This document shows positions 14,893 to 64,000 of a stretch of 64,000 bases of DNA, in pieces. Source of the stretch: Bdellovibrionota bacterium (GTDB lineage Bacteria; Bdellovibrionota; UBA1018; CAIPTA01; JAALKR01); assembly GCA_965207455.1 (NCBI GenBank), contig CBDBMJ010000001.1:222644-286643 (forward strand). The letters are read 5' to 3'. The position numbers and the translations under genes are program-made. Below the pieces are notes generated by a model, which was not told the origin of the DNA, did not search any database, and saw only the letters and a list, made by a program, of their open reading frames with translations. Numbering within the stretch: the first letter of the stretch is position 1; the number at the start of each line of letters is the position of its first letter.

Positions 14893-15624
14893 TTAAAGCA
14901 CTGGCTCCTTTTCTTTTAAAATTTTTCTATTGTTATAAATAGTTTGCCTTGAACAGCCTGACTGTCTGGCTGCCTCTGATACATTTTGAATCTTGCTTGC
15001 AAGCTCAATAATCTCTAGTTTTCTTTTTGCCTCCATGTCTTTTGCAGAAGGTTTTGAAGGTTCAGTTACCTTAGAAACTATTAATTTCTTGCCTGCAAAA
15101 TGCGCTGTAATTTTTCCTCTAGCATTTATTCGGATTTCAATTTCTTTTTTAGCAATGGAATGTCTTAACTTGGATTCCAATAAATAGATTTTATTCCCAT
15201 AACTAAAGGTATGATCATTTCTAATCTTCCGAGACTATTTCATAATAAAAATACCATTGATGTCTGTGGATAATGGAAGCGGGGTATATTCAGATATAGG
15301 GTTATCTGGTTCCACAATGCAATTTTTCTGCCAATAGGAAGGAAGAAATTTTTTTTGAAAAAACCTGTTTGCTCCCTCTATATTCCGAATGCCAGCCAAT
15401 CTTAGCTCCGGAATTAATCTATCTTGAAGTGTATAGAAAGCTCTTTCTATTCGACCCTTCCCTTGAGGTGAATTTGCAAAAATAATTTCAATGCCTAACT
15501 CCTCACAAGCTCTCTTTACTTGCGAGAAGTTACCGCGCTTTCGACCTCCAAAGAGACCCGCTCTATCAACATACAGCGTTTTAAAAACTCCCTTTTTCTT
15601 AATAACTTCTTTTAAGACTTGCGG
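14893..15624 (-). pseudogene. IS1202/ISNCY-like DDE transposase, C-terminal half (in-frame TAG at 15235-15237)
   Basis: The frame reads PQVLKEVIKKKGVFKTLYVDRAGLFGG...IIFANSPQGKGRIERAFYTLQDRLIPELRLAGI...IFIMK*SRKIRNDHTFSYGNKIYLLESKL...EIEIRINARGKITAHFAGKKLIV. This contains the second D and the E of the DDE triad. Confidence 0.7.
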
Positions 15625-16006
15625 TGGTTTGCAGGGTAGTTGCCCCTTTAAAATTTAAACTACTCCATGTCTAGCAAGATTTTTACCATGTTTCAATAGC
15701 TTAATTTTTAAAATTCTATTTCATTGGGATTTTTCTCTTTTTTACAAGGGGCGACTTTGGCGGCTCCAGCAAGCTGTAAGGCTTGCGCCGCCAGCCGCCT
15801 GTGGTAGGGAAGCAGTTACTCGTATTTCTCAATATCCCGGGAAAAATTTCCGCAGGAGTGCGCTCCTTACAATATTTATCTTGATTCGTAGGCTCTTTGT
15901 TATAAAAATCCATACACACTTATCCAAGCTATCTCGAAGGGGCTTACTGGCTGCTGGCAAGGTGAAAAACAGGTATAGAAGATGCCTATGTCTTACTTGA
16001 GACTAT

Positions 16007-16942
16007 TTAAGCAGTTTTTAACGGATTTAATGTTACAGCTTCTGACCTATCCCAGTTTCTTGTTTTCCCTGACCAACGATTTGGATTTTTTTGTTTTGCT
16101 CGTTCATATACTGCTCGTCTCTTAGTCAATATCTCAACGTCCTCACCCCTTCTGCGACTCCCTTGAGTTACAAAGTTTATACCACTATGAAAGTGCTCTT
16201 CATTATACCAAGGAATAAATTTCTCCATCCATTCCCCACATCCCTCAATAGACTCAAACGGTTTAGAGGGATAGCTTGGATTATATTTTATCGTCCTAAA
16301 AAGAGATTCGGAATAAGGATTATCATCGCTAACTCTCGGTCTATTAAAGGATGGGACCACTCCAAGTCTTTGGAGTGTGGCAAGCATGGTAGCTCCCTTC
16401 ATTGGCCCTCCATTGTCTGAATGAATAGCAAGCTCTCCTTCCTCTATCTTTTCTTGCTTGCATAAACTCAACATCATTTGACTTGATATTTCATCATTTT
16501 GTTCTGTGCTAACTACATAGCCAACGATACTGCGATCAAAGAGATCCATCACTAGGTACAGATAAAAATACATACCTTTTATATTAGTTCTCAAATATGT
16601 TATGTCCCAACTCCAAACTTCATTTGGACCTGTGGATACAAGCTCTCGAGGATTATTAACCTTACTTCCTTCTTTTTGCTTACCTCTATGGACAAGCATT
16701 CCCTCTTCTTTTAGACAACGGTAAAAAGTAGATTCACTGGCTATATACAATCCATCATCAGCTAATGCAGGTACGATCTGTGATGGAGGTTTATCCTGGA
16801 ACTTTTTACTATTTGCTATTTGAAAAATTCTTTTTCTTTCCTCATCACTTAATTTATTTGCTGGAACACTCTTGGGACCCTTCCTCCTATCTCCAACAGG
16901 GTTTTTATTCCAACGTCTGTAGGTTGTGGGGTCTAGTCCCAT
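16007..16942 (-). CDS. IS3-family transposase OrfB (rve/DDE integrase core), probably made as an OrfAB fusion by -1 frameshift
   Basis: WSWDITYL (D), HSDNGGPMKG (D) and SDDNPYSESLFRTIKY (E, 36 residues after the second D). The orfB frame is open upstream to the A11 tract at 17064-17074. Confidence 0.88.
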   Translation of the reverse strand: MGLDPTTYRRWNKNPVGDRRKGPKSVPANKLSDEERKRIFQIANSKKFQDKPPSQIVPALADDGLYIASESTFYRCLKEEGMLVHRGKQKEGSKVNNPRELVSTGPNEVWSWDITYLRTNIKGMYFYLYLVMDLFDRSIVGYVVSTEQNDEISSQMMLSLCKQEKIEEGELAIHSDNGGPMKGATMLATLQRLGVVPSFNRPRVSDDNPYSESLFRTIKYNPSYPSKPFESIEGCGEWMEKFIPWYNEEHFHSGINFVTQGSRRRGEDVEILTKRRAVYERAKQKNPNRWSGKTRNWDRSEAVTLNPLKTA

Positions 16943-17025
16943 CTGTATGCATGCCCTAAAGAGGCGTGCCCCATTAGAGACAGCCTCTTCAATTTTTTCT
17001 AAATAATTTCTCCTATCTTCTAAAC

Positions 17026-17487
17026 CTATTCGTCTTCCTCGTTGCTGCCCCAGATCAGGTCCATTTTTTTTTTTAGAATCAGCAAGGCACTGGCTTCTGC
17101 AAGAGCTTTATCTTTACGACGAATTTCTTTTTCCAAAGTGTGCACTTTCTTCTTCAACTGACGTTTCTCGGAAGGATCTTCTTTTTCACAAAGCTCATGC
17201 CTCCAGTCCGCTATATCTCGATTGAAGAGTCCGTGCTTGCGCAAATAAGCACCTCTATCTTCCTCAGTAATATTTGCAACCTGTTCAATTGCTGCCAGTT
17301 TTTGTTTTTTACTCCAATGTTTATTTCTTTTTTTCATACTAGGTTCTTTACCACATTCCTTTACCCACTTGGAGAGGGTGGGCTGCGATATGCCTACTTT
17401 AAGACTGAGGGCATGGGCACTGGGACCACTAGGAGATAGCATCTTCTGGATCATCGTTTTTTTTATTTCTTCTGAGTATAGCTTCAT
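17026..17487 (-). CDS. IS3-family transposase OrfA (HTH plus leucine-zipper region)
   Basis: HTH GISQPTLSKWVKE, a coiled-coil region KKKVHTLEKEIRRKDKALAEASALLIL, and an A11 tract (T11 on +, 17064-17074) near the 3' end. Confidence 0.85.
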   Translation of the reverse strand: MKLYSEEIKKTMIQKMLSPSGPSAHALSLKVGISQPTLSKWVKECGKEPSMKKRNKHWSKKQKLAAIEQVANITEEDRGAYLRKHGLFNRDIADWRHELCEKEDPSEKRQLKKKVHTLEKEIRRKDKALAEASALLILKKKMDLIWGSNEEDE

Positions 17488-17552
17488 AATAAAGCCTTTC
17501 TCGCCCCCTATTGTTGATAAAAAAACTACGGAATCATGGCTTTTAAGAAAAA

Positions 17553-18160
17553 TCAGCCGGACTCACGCAGATCGTAAAAAGAGGCAACTTCCCTGAAACA
17601 GGGGGCTTGCAAGCAACCAAAACTTGTTTCTGAAGGAAAGAATTTACCAAAAACCTCTCCATTGGCATCATCAATAGTAGCGATCAAGCAAGACTTAGAA
17701 TCTCCGAACCATCTATGTGTACTACCATCCATCTGCAACATGAGACCAGAGCATGCCATACGCTCTCTTCTTTTTCTAAGTTTAGATCGTCTTTTTTTTT
17801 CATTTTCACATGATGTATCTCATGTGCCCACCTTCGAAGCGTTTCTTTATTTATAAAAACACCCTCATCACTTTTTAGCTTTTCTCTGAGATGAGTTAGA
17901 TTAAAATCAAAATATTTTATTTTAATTAAATCTTCAACTTTAGTTCTTACCGAGTCAGCGGTCTTATTGATAGGAGCGCAACCTCTATTTTTATGCAGTA
18001 AATGCAAGGATCCTTTTTCTTTATGTAATCTTAAATATCGTTCAATAGTTCTTATAGATCTATTTAGAAGTTTTGAGGCATTTGGGATTGTTATTTTACC
18101 ATCACAAACCTTTGAAATTGTATCCATTTTTAATTGATCATAACTTGTTATTCTTATCAT
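17553..18160 (-). pseudogene. IS1202/ISNCY-like transposase, N-terminal half (frameshifted at an A9 tract)
   Basis: ORF 17684-18160 has the HTH region NASKLLNRSIRTIERYLRLHKEKG...YFDFNLTHLREKL. After a frame change at T9 17792-17800, the reading continues KKKRRSKLRKRRERMACSGLMLQMDGSTHRWFGDSKSCLIATIDDANGE, which contains the first catalytic D. Confidence 0.72.
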
Positions 18161-18282
18161 AATACTGCACCCTCCTATTTATTTGTAAAATCAGAAGTAC
18201 AGCTTACGAATGCTATTATGGTGCAGTGCGCCCGTCAAATTCCCTTTGTAGTTATGATACGACAGAATCGCTTTGTGATTAC

Positions 18283-18302
18283 ACTAAAAAATAGACAGTT
18301 GT
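18283..18302. repeat. Right copy of the 20-bp direct repeat flanking the IS1202-like element
   Basis: ACTAAAAAATAGACAGTTGT is identical to 14458-14477. Confidence 0.85.
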
Positions 18303-18356
18303 TGAGGAAGTTTGCGGTAGTTCCTCGAATGAATTTCTAGATATTGTCCGTTATAA

Positions 18357-18390
18357 ATAAAATCCCTTCATTTCTGAAGGGATTTTTTCA
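18357..18390 (-). terminator. Rho-independent (bidirectional-looking) terminator downstream of gene F
   Basis: A perfect 10-bp stem, aatcccttca (18361-18370) paired with tgaagggatt (18375-18384), with loop tttc. A/T runs lie on both sides, 60 nt beyond the gene F stop. Confidence 0.6.
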
Positions 18391-18450
18391 AGCCATATAG
18401 CCTCTAATATAGAATTTTCATTTAGTTTACTGAAAGATCATAAATTATAT

Positions 18451-19728
18451 TTACCGTGAACTAGCTGTTAGGTTGGGACGTATATAAATGAAAATTATTT
18501 TTTTGCTCTTGATCTCCATCTTTAGAGTTGCTAAAGTACTCTTCAATTCTGTTTTTTTCTTCTTATCAGTTTCCATATTTATATTCTCTCGAATACGTTC
18601 CACGAGTTCTTTTTTCTTCTGCATTTCTGCTTCTAGATCTTCTAGAACATTCTCTAATTCTGTTTTAGAGTAATTGGCATCTTCATCAGTAATCAAGTTA
18701 AGATTTTGAAGAATATGGATGTCACGTGCATTCCCAACTGCATAAAAATAAGAGCGACAGCCTATATTAATATAATTTTGAATCATTTTACCTGCTTGTT
18801 TTTGATTTTTATTAGCAGCGCTAGAATGCCTACTTGGCTCAGTTTCTAATGCATCTAATATTGATGCTGCTTTTTTATCATTACATTCTTCACTTATAAA
18901 GCTCAGACTTTTGGATGGACTTTTACCTTGAAGATTACTTATTCTTTCTTTCATATCCTTAAATTCCAACTTGCCCTTTGAGAGCTTCTCTTGATCTGGA
19001 ACAGGATAATAACCATATTGTAGTTCTGGTACTCCATCATCACTATAATCTGGTGTCCATATAAGAAGCCCTATAACTAGCCATTGAGCAAGTCGTCCTG
19101 CCTTCCTCAGTAAACGTCCTGTTAAAGAAGGACGACGTTTTTTAGTAACTTTAGCCATATCAATGGTCTGAGGATTATTTACTTTTATGAATTGACCTGC
19201 TGTTAGTTGAGAAGAAGCCGCAGTAGCAGCAGCAGCTATGCTTGCTTCAGATTTCTTTACTATGTGGCGACCAATAAGAATAAGTCCGAAGCTAGATACT
19301 ACAAAAATAGCAGGTTCATCGTAAGCTTGCCTTATTATGGTTTTTACCACAGGACCTACCCCTATATCGTTTGCTATATAGCCTATATCACTTGCTGTTT
19401 CCGATTCTATTATAGTGTTTGTCACAGAAGTTATCCCTATGCCGTCTACTATACTGACTATACCGTCGCCTATTTCGGATAGGTTGTCTTTTATTCCCCA
19501 TTCTTCAAAATATCTTGCTGCCTTTTTTTTTATTCCTGGTATGTTGTGTGTCTTAAAACCGATACCTAATGTTGGTATTAAAAAAGTTAAAGGTTCGTCT
19601 GTCGAATTTGAAGTTTCCTCTCCATTTGCCCTATCTGTTTCTGTGATCAGTGCCACTGAATATGCATACTGTGGGCTAACCAAAGCTAGGCAAAGTAATA
19701 TGGCTATTATATTTTTTGTTGTTTTCAT
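18451..19728 (-). CDS. Hypothetical secreted/membrane protein with coiled-coil C-terminus (island gene F)
   Basis: Signal peptide MKTTKNIIAILLCLALVSPQYAYS, internal hydrophobic segments and a K/E-rich C-terminal coiled-coil-like region. An A9 tract at 19523-19531 is currently in frame. Confidence 0.65.
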   Translation of the reverse strand: MKTTKNIIAILLCLALVSPQYAYSVALITETDRANGEETSNSTDEPLTFLIPTLGIGFKTHNIPGIKKKAARYFEEWGIKDNLSEIGDGIVSIVDGIGITSVTNTIIESETASDIGYIANDIGVGPVVKTIIRQAYDEPAIFVVSSFGLILIGRHIVKKSEASIAAAATAASSQLTAGQFIKVNNPQTIDMAKVTKKRRPSLTGRLLRKAGRLAQWLVIGLLIWTPDYSDDGVPELQYGYYPVPDQEKLSKGKLEFKDMKERISNLQGKSPSKSLSFISEECNDKKAASILDALETEPSRHSSAANKNQKQAGKMIQNYINIGCRSYFYAVGNARDIHILQNLNLITDEDANYSKTELENVLEDLEAEMQKKKELVERIRENINMETDKKKKTELKSTLATLKMEIKSKKIIFIYIRPNLTASSR

Positions 19729-19773
19729 TTTCTTATCTCCTTGTTAATTGTTATTCTTTACTGCACAAACCGT

Positions 19774-19802
19774 ATTATGCATTAAGTTATATAAATAGTC
19801 AA
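19774..19802 (-). promoter_or_regulatory. Sigma70-type promoter of gene F
   Basis: The - strand reads TTGACT (19802-19797), a 17-nt spacer, then CATAAT (19779-19774). The same ATAATGCTTGACTATT block is found upstream of genes C and D. Confidence 0.65.
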
Positions 19803-19828
19803 GCATTATCTTGAATTTTTTAGTCAAT

Positions 19829-21168
19829 CGAATTGACTCACAAAAAACGTCACCAAAATGGCTTTGAGAACAGTGAGTTACGGCTCGGTTGACTCACAAC
19901 GCAATTCCATGGAAAATATAACTGTAAAATTAACATACCAAGGAGGTACATTATGAACAAACAAGCCATAACACAATATTTACTAGCAATAGCGGAGCTT
20001 TACCGCAATAGCCTTAAGAGAGAAAAAACGAGAATACTGGATGAGGCCGTGAAGGTGTGTCCGCTAAACCGTAAGCAGATCATCAGACGCCTGCAAAAGG
20101 GTCCAGAGAGCATCATAAGGGGAGGGGGTTCTGGGAGGAGATTCCAGTACCCCCGAGGGCTCCTTAAGCCCTATATTCGCAAATTATGGACGAGGATGGG
20201 CTATCCCTGTGCTCTAATCATGCAGGCAAGTATGGAAGAGTGGCTAGAGTATTTGCCTGTTGATATGAACTTTCCCAGCGCTATAAAAAGAAAGCTTTTG
20301 CAGATGAGTGCCTCTACTGTAGGCAGATTTTTAAAAGAAATTAGAGGAGATAGGAATAAAGGAAAAAGCACCACTAGACCTGCTAGTAGTTATCTGAAGA
20401 GCAAGGTTCCCATAAATACATTGGGCTTTCGACCCGAAGAACCAGGATACTTGCAGGCAGATACGGTGTCTCACTGTGGAACAAATGTAGGCGGCTTATA
20501 CGCCTCTACCCTTACCACTACAGACGTATATTCCTCTTGGACAGAGAATAGAGCTATTCTAGGAAAAAGGGCGCATAAGGTTAGTCAGAAATTCTATGAA
20601 ATTCAAAAGGAATTGCCTTTTTTAATAATAGGAATAAATACAGACTCTGGAACAGAGTTTATCAACAATGAAGTGGTAAATTTTATGAATAGCAATGGCA
20701 GGAGAATTAATTTTACTAGGTCCAGGCCTTATCGTAAGAATGACAATTGCTTCGTGGAACAAAAGAACTTTACCCATGTAAGAGAGCTTATGGGCTATGA
20801 GAGGATAGAGGATAAAGCTCACATAGATTTGATGAATGATATTTATATAAATTACTGGAACCCGTTAAAAAACTTTTTTATTCCGTGTTTGAAATTGAAG
20901 GAGAAGTATAGAGAAAAGTCTAGAGTGATAAAAAAGTACCATAAAGCACAAACGCCCTTTAATTGGCTAATGAAATCGGATGCTCTTTCCGAGGAGTATA
21001 AAAGGAGGTTAAGAAAAAGAAAAAAAGAACTCAATCCCTTTGTCCTGAAAAGCGAAATGGACAAAAAACTAGACCAGCTTTTTTTATTATTGCAGCGGTC
21101 TAAGAATGGAAAAGCGGCATGATTTCAACGCGATGCTCCTTGGTGCGTTTTCATTATGAGTCAATACG
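19829..21168 (+). mobile_element. Insertion sequence with a single rve-type DDE transposase (family uncertain)
   Basis: Terminal inverted repeats CGAATTGACTCACAAAAAACGTCACC (19829-19854) and GGTGCGTTTTCATTATGAGTCAATACG (21142-21168). An extra subterminal TTGACTCACAA copy lies near 19890. Confidence 0.6.
19953..21122 (+). CDS. DDE transposase, integrase-core (rve) type
   Basis: LQADTVSHCG (D), INTDSGTEFIN (D) and RKNDNCFVEQKNFTHVR (E, 38 residues after the second D). AAGGAGG RBS upstream. Confidence 0.8.
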   Translation: MNKQAITQYLLAIAELYRNSLKREKTRILDEAVKVCPLNRKQIIRRLQKGPESIIRGGGSGRRFQYPRGLLKPYIRKLWTRMGYPCALIMQASMEEWLEYLPVDMNFPSAIKRKLLQMSASTVGRFLKEIRGDRNKGKSTTRPASSYLKSKVPINTLGFRPEEPGYLQADTVSHCGTNVGGLYASTLTTTDVYSSWTENRAILGKRAHKVSQKFYEIQKELPFLIIGINTDSGTEFINNEVVNFMNSNGRRINFTRSRPYRKNDNCFVEQKNFTHVRELMGYERIEDKAHIDLMNDIYINYWNPLKNFFIPCLKLKEKYREKSRVIKKYHKAQTPFNWLMKSDALSEEYKRRLRKRKKELNPFVLKSEMDKKLDQLFLLLQRSKNGKAA

Positions 21169-21243
21169 AATTATTCATAATCTATTGTTTTTATTAATTT
21201 TTTCCCCTGCTTTGCTCCTCCCTTTAAATGGGGGTTAGAAAGG

Positions 21244-53635: not shown

Positions 53636-53853
53636 GACTCAACTCCCCTTTACTCTGAAGGAGAGGCAGGGGAAACTAAGACTCCCAAACTTATGGTTAA
53701 ACACCATTTCTGAGGAAAAAGCTACCTTTAAATAAGTTTTTTGTAGATTTCCTTATATTTTCAGAAGCGACGCACCATGGACAGGCTCTTCAGAACCCCG
53801 AAAGACTACCCATGTACCCTAACATCTCAAATTATAAAGGATAATGCGTTTAT

Positions 53854-54564
53854 CTATAGACTGCTGTTAACTGTCATTGTCATCATTGGTCGATGAAATC
53901 CGCAAAAAATATCCATAGTGCCAGCCTCTTTCACATGAAGCATAAATGTAGAACCGTTATTTAAACTTCTACTTTCCTTGAATGTTAGCTCTGAATTAGG
54001 GTCAGGGCGCACGTTGTGCGGCAAAAATTTATCATTATGTGTGAATTTAATACAGTCGCCAACGTTTACATCTAGCGTATTAGGCATAAACATGGCATCT
54101 TCGAGACTCACTTCGTGTACCGTCCTAGTAAGGCATTCTGCCTCCACTGACTCTAGAGCCTCTGCTTCCTTTGACTCTGGAGTTTCCGGTCCACTCAAAG
54201 TAAGTTGCTGTTCAGTAACTTGAACTGTCATTTCCATATTTCTCCGATGAAATGAGCAAAAAATATTCATGGTGCCAGCCTCTTCAACAGCAAGCATAAA
54301 TGTACTACCGTTATTTAAAGTTTTACTTTTCTCGAACTGTATCTCTGAATCAGATTCAGAGTGCACATTGTGTCGCATTGGATCATTGTTTGTGAAATGA
54401 ATACAGTCACCAACGTTTACATTTAGCTTATTAGGCACAAACTTCCTGTTTTTGAGACTAACTTTGTGTGTAGTAAGGCACTCTGCCTCCACGGATTCTT
54501 GAGCCTGCGACTCACTAGTAAATAGCACTAATGTGCTCAATATAGTTGTTAATAATAGCTTCAT
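53854..54564 (-). CDS. Secreted tandem two-domain cupredoxin (type-1 copper) protein
   Basis: Signal peptide MKLLLTTILSTLVLFTSESQAQE. Two repeats of V..G D.I.F.N.D...HNV ... FC.FHR..M, giving His/Cys/His/Met ligand spacing. Confidence 0.8.
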   Translation of the reverse strand: MKLLLTTILSTLVLFTSESQAQESVEAECLTTHKVSLKNRKFVPNKLNVNVGDCIHFTNNDPMRHNVHSESDSEIQFEKSKTLNNGSTFMLAVEEAGTMNIFCSFHRRNMEMTVQVTEQQLTLSGPETPESKEAEALESVEAECLTRTVHEVSLEDAMFMPNTLDVNVGDCIKFTHNDKFLPHNVRPDPNSELTFKESRSLNNGSTFMLHVKEAGTMDIFCGFHRPMMTMTVNSSL

Positions 54565-54604
54565 TTTTCGTTCCTTTCTTTGTTGTGTTTTCGGTCAGGT
54601 GACA

Positions 54605-54633
54605 TAAATAGCACAAAAGGGGCAGCACGTCAA
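54605..54633 (-). promoter_or_regulatory. Candidate sigma70 promoter for the two-domain cupredoxin gene
   Basis: The - strand reads TTGACG (54633-54628), a 17-nt spacer, then TATTTA (54610-54605), about 41 nt upstream of the start at 54564. Confidence 0.4.
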
Positions 54634-54733
54634 GTCGAATATTCTCATTATTTTGCATGATTTGTTGATCGACTTCAGGAGAAATCCTGTGGGAGTGGGG
54701 GCTTTAGGGGGGTTGTTCGGCTGGCTATTTTTT

Positions 54734-55747
54734 TTAGGCAGCGGGTAGAAATTCGAGGTTTTCAGTTTCAGCCTTGCGGGAGGCTTCTGATTCTTCCGCT
54801 GGTGCTTCTGTTGATACGACGGTAAGCCCCCCTCGTATCCTTGGATGAAGTTCACAAAAAATATCTATCGTTCCCGCCTCTTCGACTTGAAGAGTGAATT
54901 CGTGACTCGTGTCCAAGGGTTCACTTTTTGTAAACTGTATGGGTGAACTTTCTCTAGGAGCTATAGTATGCGGGACTGGGTCTAGATTTATAAAACGAAT
55001 GCAGTCACCCACATTTACCTCCAGTAAGTCGGGTGAAAATCGGAAGCCCTGAATGATGACTTCATGGCAGGCTTCAGGCTCTTCTATTGGTATTTCTATT
55101 GATGTGACGGTAAGCCCTGGCATTTCTGGATGAAGATTACAAAAAATATCTATCGTTCCTGCCTTTTCGACTTGAAGAGTGAATTCGTCATCGCTCCTCA
55201 AAGGTCTACTTTTTGCAAACTGTACGGGTGAAGTTTCTGTGGGAGCTACAATATGTAGAGTTGGGTCTAGGTTTGTAAAACGAATGCAGTCACCCACAGT
55301 TACATCCAGTGCGGCAGGTGTAAATTGAAAGTCCTGAATTTTGACGTTATGGCAGGTGTCAGGTTCCTCTACTGGTGCTTGTGTTGATGTGACGGTAAGC
55401 CCTGGCATTCTTCGATGAACATCACAAAAAATATCTATCACTCCTATCATTTCGACCTGAAGAGTGAACTCGTTATTTCTCCTCAAACGCTTACTTTTTG
55501 TAAACTGTATCTCTGAACTTTCTCTGGGGGCTACAGTATGTGTGGCTGAATCCATGTTTGTAAAATGAATGCAGTCACCCACGTTAACTTCCAGTTCGGC
55601 AGGTATAAATTTAAAGTTCTGAATTGTTACCTCGTGTGTAGTAAGGCAAGATCCTACGTCTCCTGATATTCGTTGATCTAGAGCTTTCGATTCGTTGCAG
55701 TGAAACAGCACTAATGTGCTCAATATAGTTGTTAATAATAGTTTCAT
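54734..55747 (-). CDS. Secreted tandem three-domain cupredoxin protein
   Basis: Signal peptide MKLLLTTILSTLVLF matches its neighbour. Three repeats of VGDCI[HR]F[TI]N[ML]D...H[TI][VI]AP ... IDIFC..H. Domains 1-2 have C-x2-H-x2-M, and domain 3 has CELHPRI with no Met. Confidence 0.8.
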   Translation of the reverse strand: MKLLLTTILSTLVLFHCNESKALDQRISGDVGSCLTTHEVTIQNFKFIPAELEVNVGDCIHFTNMDSATHTVAPRESSEIQFTKSKRLRRNNEFTLQVEMIGVIDIFCDVHRRMPGLTVTSTQAPVEEPDTCHNVKIQDFQFTPAALDVTVGDCIRFTNLDPTLHIVAPTETSPVQFAKSRPLRSDDEFTLQVEKAGTIDIFCNLHPEMPGLTVTSIEIPIEEPEACHEVIIQGFRFSPDLLEVNVGDCIRFINLDPVPHTIAPRESSPIQFTKSEPLDTSHEFTLQVEEAGTIDIFCELHPRIRGGLTVVSTEAPAEESEASRKAETENLEFLPAA

Positions 55748-55883
55748 TTTTCCCCCTTTTTTTTAATTAATAATTAATTAATTAAAATTGGAGCATGAGA
55801 AAATGAATGGATCAAGTCTCGGTGTGCTGTAAAATTTTGCTAAATAGGTTAATGGATTGGGATGATTTTTATTTCAGGACTAG

Positions 55884-56498
55884 CTAGCGTTTCAAACATA
55901 ACCAAGCAGGTCCAAATGATCGCCAGTGCGCAAACCAGAGGGGACCATGTTTTGTTGGGCAATTTGAAGAGGAATTAGTATAGACGACTGAGCATGTGTT
56001 GGTACTTCTGACCCAGCCAGTATTTCGATTGCAAGTATAACGGCAACTGCCGCCATAACCAGAGGCACAGGTACCAGTATAAGTAGCAGGAGCAGTAAGT
56101 GATGTGGCGCCGGGTAGGGAGCAATTATTCGTAGTTAGGGCGGAGCAACTAAATCTCTGTATGGAGGTACAATTATTGCGAACTTTCCTAACTTTCCAAC
56201 CATTATTAGGGTCTCCGCTTCTTGCAGAGATAAACGAGCACCTGTAGTTACAAGTACCCGTAGAGCTATGAACGCAAGTGCCATCAGAGGAATAATGATG
56301 CTGTATACGAGGTATGGAGCAATTATTCACAGTTGTAGCATCGCAATACCTCGACCCTATCCTCCCATAGGCAGGGTTAGAGAGTGCGAGGAGGACTAAA
56401 AGAAAGAGGTACCTGAGTAGAGGCAGTCGAGAAAAATCTTTAAATATTTGAAAATAAAGAATATTTCTTCTTTTCTGGCCAAGTAAAAGATGTGCCAT
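55884..56498 (-). CDS. Cys-rich secreted protein with an internal duplication
   Basis: Hydrophobic leader LLRYLFLLVLLALSNPAYG. The C.A.T.NNCS.P...GTC...G.C.Y.C......GW.......NC pattern occurs twice. No family recognised. Confidence 0.55.
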   Translation of the reverse strand: MAHLLLGQKRRNILYFQIFKDFSRLPLLRYLFLLVLLALSNPAYGRIGSRYCDATTVNNCSIPRIQHHYSSDGTCVHSSTGTCNYRCSFISARSGDPNNGWKVRKVRNNCTSIQRFSCSALTTNNCSLPGATSLTAPATYTGTCASGYGGSCRYTCNRNTGWVRSTNTCSVVYTNSSSNCPTKHGPLWFAHWRSFGPAWLCLKR

Positions 56499-56749
56499 AG
56501 GCTTAATGCCTCCTTTCTCTATATTGTATTATAGTGGTCGGGAACTATCAAGATATTTGAGCCTGTTGTTCTCCTTTAAGTACCCTAAAATCAACTCTTA
56601 CAAAACATTGGGCAATAACCCCCGTTTTCAACTCTAACTATCTAATAATAAAGTGGATTTTAATTGACCAAAAAAGTTTTATTTCGTTGGATATTATGAT
56701 AAACTTAAGAAACAGGGTAATAAAAGTCTACAGTTTCAGGGGGTGAATT

Positions 56750-58129
56750 ATGGAGAAAATAAAACAATACACAAAATTATGTTTGCTAGGATCAGTCCTT
56801 TTTTTGGGAGGTGGAACTGCTTTCGGAGAAGGTCTTTCAGTAGCTATTCCCGTGGTATCTTCTAGTGGAGGTGCAGTGAATTGTTTGAGCAAGGATTGTG
56901 AGTGTGTGAAGAATTGTAAGGGGGCATATGCGCCGCCAGAATCAGAGCACTTTGTAGTGACGGTCAATCCTTCTTGCTTTGTAAGAAACTTAAGGAAAAT
57001 TTCAAATCCTTTACAAGGAAATCTTGACTACATAGAGGTTAAATTTAATTTCTTGACAGGGAATAGTTCAAGAAAATATGTCAGCTTAAAAGTTCCACCT
57101 AAGGCGATTCGTTCAGCGGCAGACGGCAGACAGTATACGAATAATTTGGAAGTGAATGAAGGAAATTTTGCTATTGTTACATCAGGCTTGTCAGATGATA
57201 CAAACTTGTTTGCATCGTATAAAAATCAGGTAGCTCGTTATTGGGTTGAGGGTACTAAGGTAAGTCGTGTATCGGGTATAAGCGTTAAACAAGTTTATAG
57301 GCAGGTGACACCTCAATACGTTGCCCCAAGTTATTTTCGGGGAAATAGGCTTTCCTATATTCTATCCGCTGGGCTTGCCCATTCAAGACAGAATACTCCT
57401 GATCCTGAAGTTCGTGTAATAAAATCGGCTCTATCCTTTGATAGTTCTAAATCAAAACAATATTTCAATTCAGGTAAAAATCAATTTAACATAGACTTGG
57501 TAATGCCAGGTTCAAGATCAGGTGGTGGACAGTTTGGTTGCCAAGGATATTATTCTCCTTTGATGTTATTTTTCACAGAGGCACGTCCTAAATTTCGTCA
57601 AATTAGTAAATTTCCTCTTTTTCGAGATCAATCTATTTATTGGCCTGAGGCTAAACATGTGGGATATTTCTTAGTTCGGGATCAAGATAAAAATAATAAA
57701 ATTACAAAAGGCTCCGAGCTTTTTAGGAATCATTTCAATGTTCGTAATGGTTTTGAGGATTTAAAGCGATTGGACTCTAATAAAGATAATAGAATTGATA
57801 AAAGGGATAAGATGTTTTCTCAGCTTAAGCTATGGAAGGATATTAATGGCAATGGAATTGGTGAAAGCAATGAATTAATATCTTTGAGGGATAAGGGCAT
57901 ACAGTGGATATCGCTAAAATACAGAAGTCACTTGAAGAAATTTGGAGATAGAGCTCAGGCTCGGCAGGTGTCGACATTTACTTACATGGATATGGGTGGG
58001 TCCAAAAGGTCTCTAGCAAAAAATCCAACTCAGAAGAAAGATCAGTTGAAGAAGGCAAAGATTGTGGACATTTGGTTTTCTCCAGTGCCTCGAGCCTTGG
58101 CACAAGCATTAATTAACAAGCAGAAATAA
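56750..58129 (+). CDS. Secreted protein with C-terminal EF-hand/dockerin-like calcium-binding loops
   Basis: Signal peptide KLCLLGSVLFLGGGTAFGEG. DSNKDNRIDKRD and DINGNGIGESNE loops occur in the context LVRDQDKNNKITKGSELF...LKLWKDINGNGIGESNELISL...GIQWISL. Confidence 0.65.
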   Translation: MEKIKQYTKLCLLGSVLFLGGGTAFGEGLSVAIPVVSSSGGAVNCLSKDCECVKNCKGAYAPPESEHFVVTVNPSCFVRNLRKISNPLQGNLDYIEVKFNFLTGNSSRKYVSLKVPPKAIRSAADGRQYTNNLEVNEGNFAIVTSGLSDDTNLFASYKNQVARYWVEGTKVSRVSGISVKQVYRQVTPQYVAPSYFRGNRLSYILSAGLAHSRQNTPDPEVRVIKSALSFDSSKSKQYFNSGKNQFNIDLVMPGSRSGGGQFGCQGYYSPLMLFFTEARPKFRQISKFPLFRDQSIYWPEAKHVGYFLVRDQDKNNKITKGSELFRNHFNVRNGFEDLKRLDSNKDNRIDKRDKMFSQLKLWKDINGNGIGESNELISLRDKGIQWISLKYRSHLKKFGDRAQARQVSTFTYMDMGGSKRSLAKNPTQKKDQLKKAKIVDIWFSPVPRALAQALINKQK

Positions 58130-58189
58130 ATCAATGATATGTTGATTCTAACAGGTAGAATCAAGGAATTAAAATTTAATGACAATAGA

Positions 58190-58226
58190 ATCACAAAAGG
58201 TCTTCTTGGTCTTTTGTGATTTTTTC
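58190..58226 (+). terminator. Rho-independent terminator after the Ca-loop protein gene
   Basis: A perfect 10-bp stem, atcacaaaag (58190-58199) paired with cttttgtgat (58211-58220), an 11-nt loop, then TTTTT (58221-58225). Confidence 0.75.
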
Positions 58227-58292
58227 TAGCTTTTAGTCACGCTCTGATGATTTAGGTTGTCTAATTAGAGTAAAGGAAATAAAATTAGTGGA

Positions 58293-61200
58293 ATGAACAG
58301 GATGTTTTTTCGTATCAAGCTGTGGTTGACTGTTTTCAACGCTTCCAACTTTAGTGCGAACGTTGAAAAAAATAAAAAACCATTATTTGAGAATGAAAAA
58401 GGACTGATCTTAATATTAATGTCCATTTTGATTTCGGCTTCTGCCTTCCTCGGTGTTCTTGTTAGTCAGAATTTTTCTTTAGCAAAGGAGTCCCTTAGGA
58501 CAGGAGATGAAGTTGCTCTCATGACAGCTATAGAGGGCTTGAGTGCTACGATTCTTACTGGAATTAAGAGTCGTTGGTGTTTTACTAGAGATCTAGTTCC
58601 AGTTGATTGCAATGATGGAGGCAAGAATGTCCTCAACCATTGGTTTAGCGCTGAACGCTTTTTACTGAAGGATTCTGGTTGGGAGGCGATTAATGAGGCT
58701 CGAAAAAGTCAATGCGAGAGGCTGAGAGCTGGTGGTGTGCCACTGGATAGCTTCGTTTATCCACAAAACCCTAGCTGTAATGAAATTCTGCAAGATCCAA
58801 ATAACCCAGCAAAGATTCCTTTTGACTCCATTGCCATTAAAGATAGAGAAATGGAACTTTCAGAGGAAATGATTAGAGGTTCTGACTTGCTGAGCGATTC
58901 TCTTGGAGGCTTCCTCGATTCTAGGGGTACTCGCCTGAGATTAAAGCCGCCAATGGTGGTCAGAGTGGCGAGAGATGAGAACTACCCTGAACTCGGTGAT
59001 GAGGTTTATATCTCAGTGGAGATAACGGTAACTTTTGAATTAGACAAAAGATCAAAGAAACTCGAATTTAAGCAGGTAGTAGCCTTTTATCCAAGGCAGC
59101 TTACTTCCTTTGGGCTTATTTTGGCTAGAGATTTGTATCTTGGTGGGGAGGAAGTTACATCATCTGCTATAGGAGGCTGCACTCTACCTGGAATTAATGA
59201 GAAATTCCCGTACCTCAGTAATCCGGTAGAAATCGGCAGTATTCCATTTTCTCAATATAATAAGTATAAGGGTTTGAAATTTTTAAGCCCCGTATTTATA
59301 AACGGAAATTTATATGTGAGTGATAAGAAAGATAAAGTGGTGCCAGTGGCATTTCAAAGCTCTGTTGTACTGGGTGGAGGAAGAATAGTTGGTCATACTC
59401 CATCTCTCACCAATGAATCACAAACTAAGATATCTTCCTTAAAACCAGGCATTTTAAATGGTGTGGTACAAGAGGCATCTGATAAGGGTCTAGAGACTTT
59501 TGCTAGACAGAGGGTATGCGTGAACCTTAGTAGCAACCAGCAAGCCTGTATAAATGAAGTTGAAGTGGATCCTCGATATGGGGCTAAAGCAGTAGATGCT
59601 CCTCTCGGAGGAGTAATTTCTATGGCTACTGGATTTGGAGTAAATTGTGCACATTTAGAGGACGGAAGTCTAAAGTGTTGGGGTAATGGTGATCCTAGTT
59701 CTCCCAATTTAATGAGTAATATTAGCTTCAGGAATGTGCGTAAAATTGTATTGGGGGAAAGACATGCTTGTGTGCTTTTCAATGATGATACTACTACTGC
59801 CGCTAATGAGGCAGGTAGTGTAAAATGTTGGGGAGATAACACATCTTATCAATTAGGTCGCGGTGGTGGTGGTGTGAGTGCTCAGTACTCAGTTGAGCCG
59901 AATGGTTTAGGTGTTGTAAGCGAGATTGTAGCGGGAAAATATCATACTTGTGCTATAAAAAATTCTGGCAGTGTAGAATGCTGGGGGCATGGCCGTTATG
60001 GTGAATTGGGTGATAGCCGTGCAAGTTCAAGTGAGCCAGTTGTAGTTTCTGGTTTAACTAGTGTCCGTCAAATTGCTTTAGGATGGGGGCATACTTGTGC
60101 AGTTTCAAATTATGGTAATGTAACATGTTGGGGGTTAAACTATTCTGATCAGTTGGGCGCTACGACTACGGAGACATGTGATGATGCCACTCCTTGTAGT
60201 AAAACACCAGTTGCAGTTTCTGGTTTAACTAATGTTCGTCAAATTGCCTTGGGGGCAGAGCACACCTGTGCGCTTTTAAGCAATAAGAATGTAACATGTT
60301 GGGGGAATAATCAATATGGGCAGTTGGGTGATGGTAGTACAACCAATAGAAGGATACCAGTTGTAGTTTCTGGTTTAAGCAATGTAGAGCAAATTGCCTT
60401 GGGAGCGTTGCACTCCTGTGCACTTTTAAGTAATAAGAGTGTGCAATGCTGGGGAAATGCAGGTAGGCGCCAACTGGGTAATGGTGGCACGACCAATAGA
60501 ACAAGGCCGGTTGCAGTTTCTAGCTTAAGTGATGTAAGTAAAATTTACTTGAGGGAATTTCATAGTTGTGCGCTTTTAAGTGATAAGACTCAAAAATGTT
60601 GGGGAAGTAATGGATCTCAGCAATTAAGCGCTATAGATTCTCCAGAGTGTTCAAATGATGGGACTTCATTTAAATGTATTCCAACGCCAGTTAATTTTTA
60701 CGATGGTTCCACTTATGACATTTATCCCAATGCCACATTTGCAGCAGGAAAAAAACATTCTTGCCTTGTTTTTGAACAAGAGGTTTTGTGTGGAGGAGAT
60801 GCTCAATATGAAGGAAGAAGCTCTATATTGGGCCGGGGTAGTTCTCAGAATATAGGACAAAGTGCAAAGAGGGAGTATACAGCAGCTGGAGGATTGAATA
60901 ATCCTATTTCCACAGCTAGGGGTGTGGATACATATGGAGAGCATAGTTGTGCTTTGATTTATGAATCTGATGATAAGCCTTATGAAGTTAAATGTTGGGG
61001 AAGGGGTGATTCAGGGCAGTTGGGTAATGGTGGTAACTCAGAATCGGAGATTCCTGTATTTGTAGACAACACAAGTGGAGGTAGGCTATCTGTTTATCAA
61101 ATAGCTATAGGAGGAGAGCATACCTGTGCAATTGTTCCAAATACAGGTCAGGGTTCGGTGATGTGTTGGGGAAAGAATGATCGGGGTCAGTTAGGCGATG

Positions 61201-62663
61201 GTACGACAACTAGCCGTCCATTAGCAGTATTTGTACCAATATATAATGTGACAGAAATCAAAGCAGGAGGAAAGCATACCTGTGCATTGACCTATACTGG
61301 AAGGGTATGGTGTTGGGGGAGTAATCAATATGGTCAACTGAGTGCTCGAGTTTTAGGCACAAATGATTTTTATGTACGGCCTATAAATGTTCAAGGACTT
61401 TCTGGAATTAAGGCAATTGCACTAGGGGATGAACACACCTGTGCGCTTTTAAGTAATAAGACTGTAAAATGTTGGGGGAGGAATAATAAAAATCAACTGG
61501 GCAATGGACGTTCCTATGGTAATTTTCCCACTCCTTTTCCAGTGAAAAAGACAGGTGGAGGTTCTCTTACGGGCATAAGCATTTCACCTGGGCGCACTTC
61601 TCTTGTGGCAGGAAGTGCCCATACCTGCGCCTTAACAGAAGTAATAGGGGCAGCTCTATCCTCTGTATATTGCTGGGGTGCTAACGATAGAAAGCAGGTT
61701 GGGCAAGCGAGTGGAGTTAATTTTCCAACAGCTAAACTACTACCAACGGTTTCTGGTACTGATCTTGAAATAGCTGGAGGTCTTTATCATAATTGCTTTC
61801 GAGATGGCTCTAAGGTGAAATGTTGGGGAGATAATACATATAAACAGTTTAGTGCCAGCACTACTGAACCTAATGCTAATAGCAGTGCCAATCCTTTAGG
61901 TCTTTCTCAGTGTGATGAGTCTGGTGAGATAGGTAACGATGGTGCTGTAACCTATGAATCTGTGGGCTGGGGAGTTGACTTTTCTTCTCAGGTCTTTGAT
62001 ATATGGGACTATGTGGAAGAAACTGTGACTCTAGAAGAGGCACGTGTTTTGGTGGAAGGGAGAGTAAATAGCGTTGATGATGATGGAAAGGTGGTTTGCA
62101 ATAACTGTAATGCTACAGCTTATTTTCTCAACGAAGCTGGACGTGCATATGATTTAGGATCAAAATCAATTGCATCAGAATGTGTGGTTTCTAGTAGCAC
62201 TAATTTTGTGGCTGGGCTTTTTATGTGTTATAGATTTATTATTGCAGCTCGAAATACCCCCCTTTCCATTTCAGGAACAGTCATCACCAATGATTTATCG
62301 ATAGATGAAAGCGCATTGAAAGCAGGGATTACATGGTCTAATATTTGGCACCCATTGGCGGTGTATAACTTAAGGAAAACAAAAATATTGAAGAGAGTAG
62401 CGGATCTGGGAAATGGAGAAGAATGTGGTTCTAGAGAAAGCTCCGGCTTTGTGTTGAATGATGTGCCTGGCAGTGCAAGTGTTGAGAATTATAAATCTTG
62501 TAGCTCTTCATCTTTATTAAACGAGGGGGAAAAAGGTGTTAATTTTAAATGGACAGAAGTAGATCCGGACTGTGGTCAACCCCTTGCTAACGGAGCGGAA
62601 AATAAGTGTAAATCTCATAAAAAGAGATATGGGATGAGGCGTATTTTCTCCGTGTTTAAATAA
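58293..62663 (+). CDS. Giant (1456 aa) PilX-N-like anchored protein with about 14 RCC1 (beta-propeller) repeats
   Basis: The N-terminus ENEKGLILILMSILISASAFLGVLV resembles the PilX N-terminal hydrophobic segment. There are 13 CWG.N..GQLG motifs plus one degenerate blade between about 59600 and 61870. The C-terminal ~260 aa are Cys-containing. Confidence 0.8.
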   Translation: MNRMFFRIKLWLTVFNASNFSANVEKNKKPLFENEKGLILILMSILISASAFLGVLVSQNFSLAKESLRTGDEVALMTAIEGLSATILTGIKSRWCFTRDLVPVDCNDGGKNVLNHWFSAERFLLKDSGWEAINEARKSQCERLRAGGVPLDSFVYPQNPSCNEILQDPNNPAKIPFDSIAIKDREMELSEEMIRGSDLLSDSLGGFLDSRGTRLRLKPPMVVRVARDENYPELGDEVYISVEITVTFELDKRSKKLEFKQVVAFYPRQLTSFGLILARDLYLGGEEVTSSAIGGCTLPGINEKFPYLSNPVEIGSIPFSQYNKYKGLKFLSPVFINGNLYVSDKKDKVVPVAFQSSVVLGGGRIVGHTPSLTNESQTKISSLKPGILNGVVQEASDKGLETFARQRVCVNLSSNQQACINEVEVDPRYGAKAVDAPLGGVISMATGFGVNCAHLEDGSLKCWGNGDPSSPNLMSNISFRNVRKIVLGERHACVLFNDDTTTAANEAGSVKCWGDNTSYQLGRGGGGVSAQYSVEPNGLGVVSEIVAGKYHTCAIKNSGSVECWGHGRYGELGDSRASSSEPVVVSGLTSVRQIALGWGHTCAVSNYGNVTCWGLNYSDQLGATTTETCDDATPCSKTPVAVSGLTNVRQIALGAEHTCALLSNKNVTCWGNNQYGQLGDGSTTNRRIPVVVSGLSNVEQIALGALHSCALLSNKSVQCWGNAGRRQLGNGGTTNRTRPVAVSSLSDVSKIYLREFHSCALLSDKTQKCWGSNGSQQLSAIDSPECSNDGTSFKCIPTPVNFYDGSTYDIYPNATFAAGKKHSCLVFEQEVLCGGDAQYEGRSSILGRGSSQNIGQSAKREYTAAGGLNNPISTARGVDTYGEHSCALIYESDDKPYEVKCWGRGDSGQLGNGGNSESEIPVFVDNTSGGRLSVYQIAIGGEHTCAIVPNTGQGSVMCWGKNDRGQLGDGTTTSRPLAVFVPIYNVTEIKAGGKHTCALTYTGRVWCWGSNQYGQLSARVLGTNDFYVRPINVQGLSGIKAIALGDEHTCALLSNKTVKCWGRNNKNQLGNGRSYGNFPTPFPVKKTGGGSLTGISISPGRTSLVAGSAHTCALTEVIGAALSSVYCWGANDRKQVGQASGVNFPTAKLLPTVSGTDLEIAGGLYHNCFRDGSKVKCWGDNTYKQFSASTTEPNANSSANPLGLSQCDESGEIGNDGAVTYESVGWGVDFSSQVFDIWDYVEETVTLEEARVLVEGRVNSVDDDGKVVCNNCNATAYFLNEAGRAYDLGSKSIASECVVSSSTNFVAGLFMCYRFIIAARNTPLSISGTVITNDLSIDESALKAGITWSNIWHPLAVYNLRKTKILKRVADLGNGEECGSRESSGFVLNDVPGSASVENYKSCSSSSLLNEGEKGVNFKWTEVDPDCGQPLANGAENKCKSHKKRYGMRRIFSVFK

Positions 62664-62688
62664 CCAATGTTAAGAGAGTAGCGTTCAG

Positions 62689-63276
62689 ATGAGAAAGTAT
62701 AATATTTTGAAGATTGTTAAAAAAAATGATGGCTTTACTTTAATTGAGGTCATGATAGCTTTTGTTATTCTAATAGCTTCGTTCTTTATTATTGAAAATG
62801 CTTTTCTACAACAGAAAAAATTTGTATTTCAGGTGGAAGGTTCTATTAATCGAAGTCTTGCATTTTCTGAAATTTTTCAAGGATTACAGGCAAATCTTTT
62901 AAGATATAATAAACATGATTATGATAGTGAATCCTTAATTAAGTGTCTCCAGCCGGATGGGGGGTTGAGAAAAGAACTTACTAAAGATATGAGAAAGTAT
63001 TTTTATGAGATCTCTCGTAATGGCACAAGCGATAATTTTAGCGATTTATATAATTGCTTTCAGATGGCCCTTTCTATTAAAGGGCTTACTTCTGTGATGA
63101 AATGTTCAGATTGCTCCGAGAGAGTGGGGATGATGATTGATCCGTATTATGTTGGTGGAAAACTTATTGAGGGAGTGTATAATGTACGTATTCTGTCCAT
63201 AAAAAAAATTAAAGGTGCAACTGGAGTAGGGACATATAAAGTAGGGAATTATTATAAGATGATTCTAGGGGGTTAA
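62689..63276 (+). CDS. Prepilin-type N-terminal cleavage/methylation domain protein (minor pilin/pseudopilin)
   Basis: MRKYNILKIVKKNDG|FTLIEVMIAFVILIASFF has the canonical G-F-T-L-I-E motif with a hydrophobic helix. Confidence 0.82.
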   Translation: MRKYNILKIVKKNDGFTLIEVMIAFVILIASFFIIENAFLQQKKFVFQVEGSINRSLAFSEIFQGLQANLLRYNKHDYDSESLIKCLQPDGGLRKELTKDMRKYFYEISRNGTSDNFSDLYNCFQMALSIKGLTSVMKCSDCSERVGMMIDPYYVGGKLIEGVYNVRILSIKKIKGATGVGTYKVGNYYKMILGG

Positions 63277-63279
63277 ATT

Positions 63280-64000
63280 TTGACTAGTCAGAATACAAAA
63301 CAAGCAGGCTTTACAATGGTAGAAATGATGGTGACAGCAGGATTGTTGGCATTATTCGTATTTTTTTCCTATGACATAATAACAAAAATGAATCAGAAAA
63401 GTATTAATCTGTCTTCTGAGCAGAAAAATTTGCTAGACACTGCCATCGCTTATAGAGTGCTGAATAAAGAATTAAAAAAAACCTATGTATCATTCTCTAA
63501 TATGTTAAGTCTTACAGATGAATTTAGGATTAGGAGGCGAGGTGCTAAATATTTTTTTGAATATTCTCAATCTGGAATGGAAAATGTGCTCCTTACTATC
63601 ACTTTAAGTAAGATTAAAAGAGCAGTTGTTTTTTTAAAGACTGGTCTTTTAGGTGAGGGAGTGCGTGGCGCAAGCATTGCTCCCTTTGAGCTTTTAGGAG
63701 TTAATTTTTTAAGAGAACGGTTGACGAGTGGTGGTTGCGATCCTAATGATATTAATACCAACTATAATTCTAACTGTGAATCGAAGGAGTACTCTCTAGA
63801 AAGATTTAAAGAAGCGGTTGAAGCAGCGGGGTGGTTGCAGGAAGAACAGCTTTTTTTGCTTTATTCGCCCATATGGCTAACCGTAACAGACAGGAATTTG
63901 AAGAAAAAAATAAAAACTCCTGCTGTTCTTTTGCAATACACTGGAGGCAAGTTTAAAAAATATGGTACCCCTGAAATTTCATTTGATTTTAGCATTCCTG
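63280..64000 (+). CDS. Second prepilin-type N-terminal domain protein (3' end off the window; not in the ORF track)
   Basis: Manual translation from TTG 63280 gives MTSQNTKQAG|FTMVEMMVTAGLLALFVFF... The frame stays open to position 64000. Confidence 0.7.
   Translation, partial: MTSQNTKQAGFTMVEMMVTAGLLALFVFFSYDIITKMNQKSINLSSEQKNLLDTAIAYRVLNKELKKTYVSFSNMLSLTDEFRIRRRGAKYFFEYSQSGMENVLLTITLSKIKRAVVFLKTGLLGEGVRGASIAPFELLGVNFLRERLTSGGCDPNDINTNYNSNCESKEYSLERFKEAVEAAGWLQEEQLFLLYSPIWLTVTDRNLKKKIKTPAVLLQYTGGKFKKYGTPEISFDFSIP

Follow-up and report, generated by a model that had tools for sequence, protein, structure and literature searches.

A conserved four-gene cassette encoding pilin-like proteins and a variant self-processing module, adjacent to unrelated cupredoxin genes in a Bdellovibrionota genome

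We describe a group of seven open reading frames (ORFs) at positions 53854–64000 of a 64,000-nucleotide stretch of a Bdellovibrionota bacterium genome (assembly GCA_965207455.1, contig CBDBMJ010000001.1, positions 222,644 to 286,643; hereafter the window), for which a preliminary description, made from the DNA sequence alone, had tentatively suggested a composite surface apparatus. The region is made up of two unrelated things: a pair of cupredoxin genes with an orphan gene encoding a Cys-rich protein, and a four-gene cassette encoding a Ca-loop protein, a large RCC1 protein (here BIG) and two pilins (pil1 and pil2). The Ca-loop protein is a variant of the FrpC-type self-processing module (SPM), and we refer to it as the SPM protein. 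The four genes constitute a conserved and undescribed cassette that is mobile in position among Bdellovibrionota-type genomes. Comparison with the ORF list and with Pfam and NCBIfam shows that all seven ORFs exist at the stated positions and that the domain calls made for them hold, and the presence of two orientations and several transcription units is also borne out.

All four cassette genes are on the plus strand. The SPM gene (56750–58129; 459 aa) is followed by an intrinsic terminator (58187–58226, plus strand) with a 16-bp AT-rich stem and a U-run, whose fold of -15.6 kcal/mol (z -3.3) was matched by none of 200 shuffles. BIG (58293–62663; 1456 aa) is separated by 25 nt from pil1 (62689–63276; 195 aa), the small pilin of the cassette, and pil1 by 3 nt from pil2 (63280–64000), the large pilin, which has a TTG start and runs past the end of the window.

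Homologues of either the SPM protein or BIG were used to gather 19 other loci, some of them possibly from closely related organisms, which were then annotated. BIG and SPM genes are neighbours in all 19, and both pilin genes, homologous to those of the window, are recognisable in 14 (small, ~150–190 aa; large, ~313–403 aa); the remaining five comprise one fragment cut inside BIG and four loci with a single or incomplete pilin gene. Fifteen loci have the gene order BIG-small-large-SPM, and the window and two others (Halobacteriovorax and a JGI contig) have SPM-BIG-small-large; the fragment (L082) starts SPM-BIG. On either side lie unrelated housekeeping genes, different ones in different loci, and because the neighbourhood is constant while the flanks vary, we regard the four genes as a self-contained unit. 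Where a source is named, which is so in few cases, it is Bdellovibrionaceae, Halobacteriovorax or Oligoflexia. A genome scan anchored on NusG for syntenic relatives yielded best matches of 56–60% identity in deltaproteobacterial and Omnitrophota metagenome-assembled genomes (MAGs), none of which has any of the locus proteins, and exact look-ups found neither pil1 nor the SPM protein on record in public assemblies. The neighbourhood comparison around the RCC1 protein, which had been put forward as the test of the grouping, thus comes out in its favour for this part of the region: the Ca-loop and RCC1-type genes are neighbours in all 19 other loci, mostly alongside both pilin genes, and their association is therefore real.

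The SPM protein has no match in local copies of Pfam and NCBIfam, and it was recognised through its homologues, 41 in number, all of which carry the precomputed Pfam assignment PF26745 ('SPM'). An AlphaFold (AF2) model built on 31 homologues is confident in its C-terminal half, and the sole significant PDB matches of the model in a Foldseek search are to the Neisseria meningitidis FrpC SPM (6sjx/6sjw; E 7e-9, TM-score 0.71 normalised to the target). A family profile matches the same two entries with E 7e-28, and the single sequence does so with E 8e-15, such that sequence and predicted fold both place the protein in PF26745. It is organised as a Sec signal, a beta-rich N-domain (approximately aa 60–255) and the SPM (approximately aa 264–445), with Tyr-Ser-Pro replacing the Tyr-Asp-Pro of the known modules. 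The family is of small size (~415 aa; range 366–514, with one member of 762) with N-terminal Sec-type signals, and it lacks the RTX and type I secretion system (T1SS) context of the described SPM proteins; HemolysinCabind is found only in two distant matches (P0035 and P0038).

Much of the FrpC architecture is nonetheless retained. Three 12-residue EF-hand-like loops are kept in the window protein (DQDKNNKITKGSE, DSNKDNRIDKRD and DINGNGIGESNE) and are predicted to be Ca sites; these sites, like the signal peptides and the correspondence of Ser269 to FrpC D414, were assigned by eye or by alignment. W298, W362 and D440 are invariant in the family, with the two Trp residues equivalent to FrpC W451 and W519, Asp440 to D579, Gly334 to G491, and Tyr268 to the Tyr preceding D414. 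The motif FCGGYYSPLMLFF is present in all 31 detected family members, and within the invariant F-C-G-G-Y-Y-S-P-L-M-L-F-F both Cys264 and Tyr-Ser-Pro-Leu are constant (31 of 31). The homology to the SPMs of FrpC and Actinobacillus pleuropneumoniae ApxIVA thus extends over ~120–180 residues in sequence and fold, and includes the three loops, the two stacking Trp residues, the Tyr before the scissile residue, the Pro-Leu-x-Leu after it, and the equivalents of the cleavage-port lining residues G491 and D579. In contrast to FrpC, the family has Ser for Asp and has lost the first Ca loop after the Pro (DLDGDG), and its members are small, Sec-signal-bearing proteins without RTX repeats or a T1SS signal, always encoded together with pilin-like genes. 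SPMs have been described as exclusive to RTX proteins (PMC7078468), and in the literature library searched we found no paper linking SPM or clip-and-link chemistry with pili or with Bdellovibrio. The canonical RTX-type matches recovered alongside the family (P0033, P0034 and P0038) have D-P-L-x-L-D-L at the scissile position. Two matches outside the cassette family, P0036 and P0037, have instead Ser-Pro (RSPIILDLDGNGV) or Thr-Pro (STPLVLSFDG) at this position, and as judged from these alignments non-Asp SPM variants recur.

BIG has three parts: an N-domain (aa ~30–425), RCC1 propellers (aa ~440–1230) and a Cys-rich C-domain (aa ~1230–1456). The RCC1 assignment is strong (WD40_RLD 1.3e-176, RCC1_2 1e-83, RCC1 6e-75), and there are 14 C[W/G]G blades, from which we deduce two 7-bladed propellers. 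A word-index search for relatives with residues 1–440 gave nothing, and an exhaustive HMMER search succeeded, identifying 82 cluster representatives, mostly of 800–1700 aa, in which the match is always N-terminal; a metagenome scan used a 13-sequence alignment, a 52-sequence alignment being too diverse. All 82 have a short basic leader, a Gly and a hydrophobic stretch, which is followed by an 'L-x-S-x-x-D-Y...G-x-K-x-R-W-C-F' motif, and the C-domain of ~200 residues is also common to the relatives, including those without RCC1. Because the N- and C-domains are kept and RCC1 repeats occur in only 9 of 52 relatives, RCC1 is an optional insert between two family-specific domains. Those relatives that are named are all annotated as 'hypothetical protein'.

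The N-terminus of BIG (EKG/LILILMSIL..., with the leader ending at Gly37 and a hydrophobic helix without Glu5) is pseudopilin-like. The earlier assignment of a PilX-like anchor holds as a motif resemblance but not as a match to the Pfam PilX_N model, which detects neither BIG, even at E<10, nor any of 52 relatives at E<=0.001. Alignment with hhalign puts the BIG Gly in register with the prepilin Gly, weakly (E 0.0012, probability 19%), and the AF2 model of the N-domain (pLDDT 78) predicts a 58-residue N-terminal helix, an antiparallel sheet and short strands, corresponding to the 'lollipop' layout of a pilin. The combination of a pilin-like protein with RCC1 repeats has a precedent in Saccharibacteria, for which a PilX bearing an RCC1 propeller was predicted (PMC11623550). 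As is predicted for BIG, this putative minor pilin, the seven-bladed RCC1 protein TM7x PilX2, has a pilin-like helix without a predicted PilD signal and is encoded with minor pilins (PMC11623550); it belongs to a different phylum with no demonstrated sequence relation, and BIG differs in having two propellers inserted between family-specific domains and in its SPM partner, which is not reported for TM7x.

The two pilins are more conventional at their N-termini. Both match N_methyl (pil1, 4.7e-6; pil2, 3e-5) and TIGR02532, and both have a basic leader, Gly at -1 and a helix with Glu at +5, with leaders read by eye as KKNDG/FTLIEVM (G15/F in pil1) and KQAG/FTMVEMM. This prepilin motif is retained in 9 of 11 and 13 of 14 relatives in the two families, and the homologues occupy the same position in the other loci. 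The small pilin family also has an invariant C-x2-C followed by G-R-x-G-x-x-I-Q-P near the C-terminus (C-S-D-C-S-E-R-V-G in the window protein), and the C-x2-C may correspond to a metal site or a disulfide.

We think it rather probable that the cassette supplies a type IV filament with a minor-pilin and tip-adhesin module, together with an accessory protein that depends on Ca, and that the cupredoxins are bystanders to it. The gene content, the domain identities, the synteny, the lack of cupredoxins in the other loci and the change from Asp to Ser are shown by the data; what we infer is incorporation into a filament, a position at its tip, the role of BIG as an adhesin, and any cleavage or cross-linking. 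BIG, pil1 and pil2, with their class-III-like N-termini, would assemble through their N-terminal helices to form the priming or tip complex, with the motor and channel of the filament encoded elsewhere in the genome. Lacking Glu5 in the manner of GspK and PilX, BIG would be at the apex, and its variable middle domain, here the two RCC1 propellers, would form the distal surface for binding; the analogy is with GspI-J-K, or with PilV-W-X and PilY1. The SPM protein would be exported by Sec, fold only with Ca2+, and act on or with the tip complex. It could do so as a Ca-dependent stabiliser or switch, for which Ca binding by PilY1 and its helper TfcP provide a precedent (PMC8833165), or through self-processing at the conserved Tyr-Ser-Pro. 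Of the earlier suggestion of an adhesion or predation organelle with Ca and Cu cofactors, the Ca part is therefore plausible given the conserved grouping; cupredoxins are present in none of the 19 other loci.

The closest functional parallels are the tip complexes of type IVa pili (T4aP) and of type II secretion systems (T2SS). The T4aP tip (FimU-PilVWX-PilY1, and the Myxococcus xanthus TfcP clusters) similarly combines prepilins with a large beta-propeller protein and a Ca component, and the T4aP minor-pilin clusters, like the cassette, are located apart from the machinery genes, with TfcP as a precedent for a Ca-dependent accessory protein (PMC8833165). In contrast to the T4aP tip, the cassette has three pilin-like genes rather than four, an RCC1 propeller that is fused to a pseudopilin-like protein in place of a separate PilY1, and a Ca protein that is an SPM and not a cytochrome or PilY1; the cassette proteins match no PilY1/PilC, PilX_N, PilW or PilV model, and specifically there is no Pfam or NCBIfam match to the PilY1/PilC beta-propeller domain on either BIG or the SPM protein. 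The GspI-GspJ-GspK tip of the T2SS shares with the cassette a set of three pilin-like proteins, one small, one medium and one large, of which the largest (GspK in the T2SS) is without Glu5. Unlike in the T2SS, NCBIfam matches to GspJ or ComGE/GF are weak (E 0.001–0.1) and restricted to the N-terminal helix, and there are no Gsp genes nearby.

Several observations weigh against a pilus-tip role with a self-processing component. Filament machinery genes (PilB/C/M-Q or Gsp) are adjacent to the cassette in none of the loci. The globular parts of pil1 and pil2, compared with the PDB and with Pfam profiles, show no relationship to any known minor-pilin family, with only the N-terminal helix being matched; BIG is matched by none of the PilX_N, GspK and PilY1 models, and Foldseek finds no solved relative of its N-domain at E<0.05. 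Within the SPM, the nucleophilic Asp of the scissile Asp-Pro bond is Ser in all 31 family members, and at the port residues G477/D478 the window protein has Arg-Asn, where most of its relatives have Gly-Asp. In FrpC, Ca2+-induced folding strains the Asp414-Pro415 bond and the Asp side chain attacks its own carbonyl; following breakage of the bond the resulting anhydride links to a nearby lysine, a reaction known as 'clip-and-link' (PMC7078468). Because the Asp is missing, and because the D414A substitution abolishes FrpC SPM activity (PMC7846742), this known chemistry cannot run in the window family. Finally, secreted redox proteins are found beside the cassette in 3 of 20 loci including the window, slightly above our guess for chance.

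These considerations leave some room for the cassette being real without being a filament tip, its pilin-like proteins serving either as inner-membrane anchors of a periplasmic or surface complex or as a GspI/J/K-like T2SS pseudopilus tip used in secretion. The failure to match PilX, PilV, PilW and PilY1 models, the three pilin-like genes where T4aP have four plus PilY1, the absence of a solved-structure match for the BIG N-domain and its lack of Glu5, a feature shared with GspK, would all be compatible with such a role. We consider it unlikely, however, as the canonical G/F-T-L-x-E motifs of pil1 and pil2 mark them as prepilin-peptidase substrates, and huge variable domains such as RCC1 are easier to reconcile with a surface exposed for binding than with a piston in the periplasm. 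It is similarly doubtful, and a matter separate from the location of the complex, that the Ser-Pro SPM still processes itself by an altered chemistry. One conceivable route is attack by Ser269 on the carbonyl of Tyr268, the ester so formed then being hydrolysed or transferred to a nucleophile. Extracellular Ca2+ would in this way clip off the N-domain, which may also become covalently attached to the tip complex or to prey. The invariance of Tyr-Ser-Pro-Leu and Cys264 despite loss of the Asp speaks for this, as do the mostly retained residues that line the FrpC cleavage port (compared with PMC7078468), the presence before the scissile residue of Tyr, which is the kinetic optimum in FrpC (PMC7846742), and the Ser/Thr-Pro variants among the other SPM-like matches. 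The FrpC mechanism requires an Asp carboxylate, though, and D414A is inactive (PMC7846742), while the Arg-Asn in place of Gly-Asp at the port of the window protein and the prospect that Ser-Pro conservation is purely structural point the same way. A search of the literature found no experimental case of a Ser-Pro SPM, and we know of none.

Cupredoxin genes lie to the left of the cassette on the minus strand, with secE, nusG, rplK-A-J-L and rpoB-C upstream of the locus on the same strand. The genes cup2 (53854–54564; 236 aa) and cup3 (54734–55747; 337 aa) encode Sec-secreted proteins with two and three amicyanin-like type-1 copper domains respectively, both of them bystanders to the conserved cassette. 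Pfam matches are to Cupredoxin_1 (1e-17) and Copper-bind (3e-15) in two stretches of cup2, and to Cupredoxin_1 (3e-23) in three stretches of cup3, all domains being above the Pfam cut-off, which together with their predicted ligands assigns them to the type-1 copper cupredoxins of the amicyanin/plastocyanin family. Both cup2 domains have the ligand pattern H...C-x2-H-x2/3-M, and a full putative His-Cys-His-Met set is present in four of the five domains, with Ile in place of Met in the third domain of cup3. In that domain (54734–55100) a CELHPRIRGG loop replaces C-x2-H-x2-M and the axial Met is gone, such that the putative copper site may be open or of high potential. The nearest solved chains to cup3 are 5fc9 from Nitrosopumilus ('Blue (Type 1) copper domain protein') and amicyanins; the window domains have in common with these the His, Cys-x2-His-x2-Met pattern, and the third cup3 domain is best aligned to 5fc9, both loops being Met-less (C-S-F-H-P-W-R in 5fc9). 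They differ from the amicyanin and plastocyanin proteins in being arranged in tandem (2x and 3x), each domain having an additional conserved pair of Cys residues; every score is far under the NCBIfam equivalog cut-offs, and a redox partner gene is absent nearby.

A search of 5.8e9 proteins with cup3 recovered only cup3 itself and cup2, with no close homologue outside this genome; with only these two window paralogues found, there are no comparison loci for cupredoxin neighbourhoods in other genomes. We conclude that cup2 and cup3 are a lineage-specific duplication, and they are probably periplasmic electron carriers that lie by chance between secE and the cassette. The DNA encoding their signal peptides (54520–54564 in cup2 and 55703–55747 in cup3), together with a few upstream bases, differs by 2 mismatches in ~45 nt, and the remainder of the two genes has diverged to 44% protein identity, which suggests gene conversion or constraint. 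The Sec-type N-termini of the region were read by eye, with MKLLLTTILSTLVLF in both cupredoxins and with LLVLLALSNPAYG and LLGSVLFLGGGTAFG also present. Between cup3 and the cassette is the orphan gene (55884–56498, minus strand; 204 aa), whose secreted product contains 14 Cys in its mature part, shows weak internal repetition and has no match in Pfam, NCBIfam or the PDB.

Neither the cupredoxins nor the orphan accompany the cassette elsewhere. A hidden Markov model of the five window cupredoxin domains found nothing in 13 cassette loci (best E 2.5), phmmer searches of the same loci with cup2, cup3 and the Cys-rich protein likewise found nothing, and in the remaining cassette loci there is no copper protein in the Pfam lists of called genes. 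Strain-level data point in the same direction. These are limited to contig depths from the single public run that holds the locus (X1), in which unitig depth is ~19–25 over the ribosomal genes and both cupredoxin genes, and 9.9 from ~55874. The depth-9.9 unitig is 8.5 kb long, extends from 55845 to ~311 nt beyond the window end and includes the Cys-rich gene, which is thus within the strain-variable block; a second contig parts from the window sequence at 55874, a point that separates cup3 from the remaining genes, and continues into unlike sequence. As a lead rather than proof, this suggests that two co-existing strains share the cupredoxins but not the block containing the Cys-rich gene and cassette. 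The same run contains two allelic 110-nt unitigs, differing by 5 single-nucleotide polymorphisms, at 55547–55656. A look for RNA-seq runs yielded none.

The preliminary description had raised, speculatively, a single filament-associated apparatus for extracellular electron transfer or metal handling, formed by the cupredoxins and the pilus-like module together. The genes are indeed physically adjacent in the window, and TfcP is a precedent for a protein of redox fold that acts in a cluster of minor pilins (PMC8833165). Moreover, c-type cytochromes are encoded next to the SPM gene in two of the 19 other loci (L079 and L095), and in one of these there is also an MtrB/PioB-type porin and a multihaem cytochrome. 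The 17 others have no redox gene nearby, though, and none of the 19 has a cupredoxin; there is no homology between the cytochromes of L079 and those of L095, cup2 and cup3 are encoded on the other strand with the orphan gene and a divergent spacer of 251 nt intervening before the cassette, the breakpoint at strain level lies between them and the cassette, and TfcP itself transfers no electrons (PMC8833165). The idea of filament-associated electron transfer thus has no comparative support, because the cupredoxins are absent from the other cassette loci, are without detectable homologues outside this genome and lie past the graph breakpoint, and we regard a single apparatus as very improbable. 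The accompanying caveat that the grouping may be coincidental was well founded for the copper genes but not for the Ca-loop, RCC1 and pilin genes, which are conserved neighbours. Copper genes beside pilin genes do not amount to a conductive filament, and a tempting over-reading of the locus is thereby corrected.

A conserved TfcP-like cytochrome partner of the cassette was also considered and rejected, as the L079 and L095 cytochromes are unrelated. In L095 (11398–18650), which comes from an Oligoflexia MAG, genes for mono-haem and NapC/NirT-type tetrahaem cytochromes come after the cassette in the same orientation, and the porin and multihaem cytochrome, 4–6 kb further on, look like an Mtr-like outer-membrane electron conduit.

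Elsewhere in the window, positions 10000–21200 form a block of low GC content (0.34–0.39, against 0.42–0.47 around it) between cell-wall and division-type genes and the ribosomal operons. The block contains an IS3-type transposase pair (HTH_Tnp_1 at 17026–17487 and rve at 16007–16942), another rve ORF (19953–21122) and seven ORFs without a Pfam match, and it resembles an inserted island. ARAGORN identifies no tRNA genes in the 64-kb window, including the segment upstream of secE (53636–53853), in many bacteria a common place for a tRNA gene, and an Rfam scan of 53–64 kb gave no match.

At its most ambitious, the cassette could be seen as a pilus-tip 'harpoon' in which the Ser-Pro SPM is a new Ca-triggered self-processing domain that acts through an ester and not an anhydride, clipping the beta-rich N-domain outside the cell and joining it by a covalent bond to the tip complex or the prey surface. 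We hold this to be a long shot, and if true it would provide predatory Bdellovibrionota with an irreversible attachment step, in which the swappable middle of BIG, whether RCC1 or other domains, sets target specificity. A Sec-exported Ser-Pro SPM family encoded beside pilin-like genes widens the known settings of such modules, which are in use as protein-ligation tools (NeissLock), and provides a case in nature for asking whether chemistry of another kind can run on the strained-amide scaffold. Predatory bacteria need type IV pili for prey entry, and little is known of the tip components by which prey is recognised; the cassette, with its modular and strain-variable display protein, is a concrete candidate for such a component.

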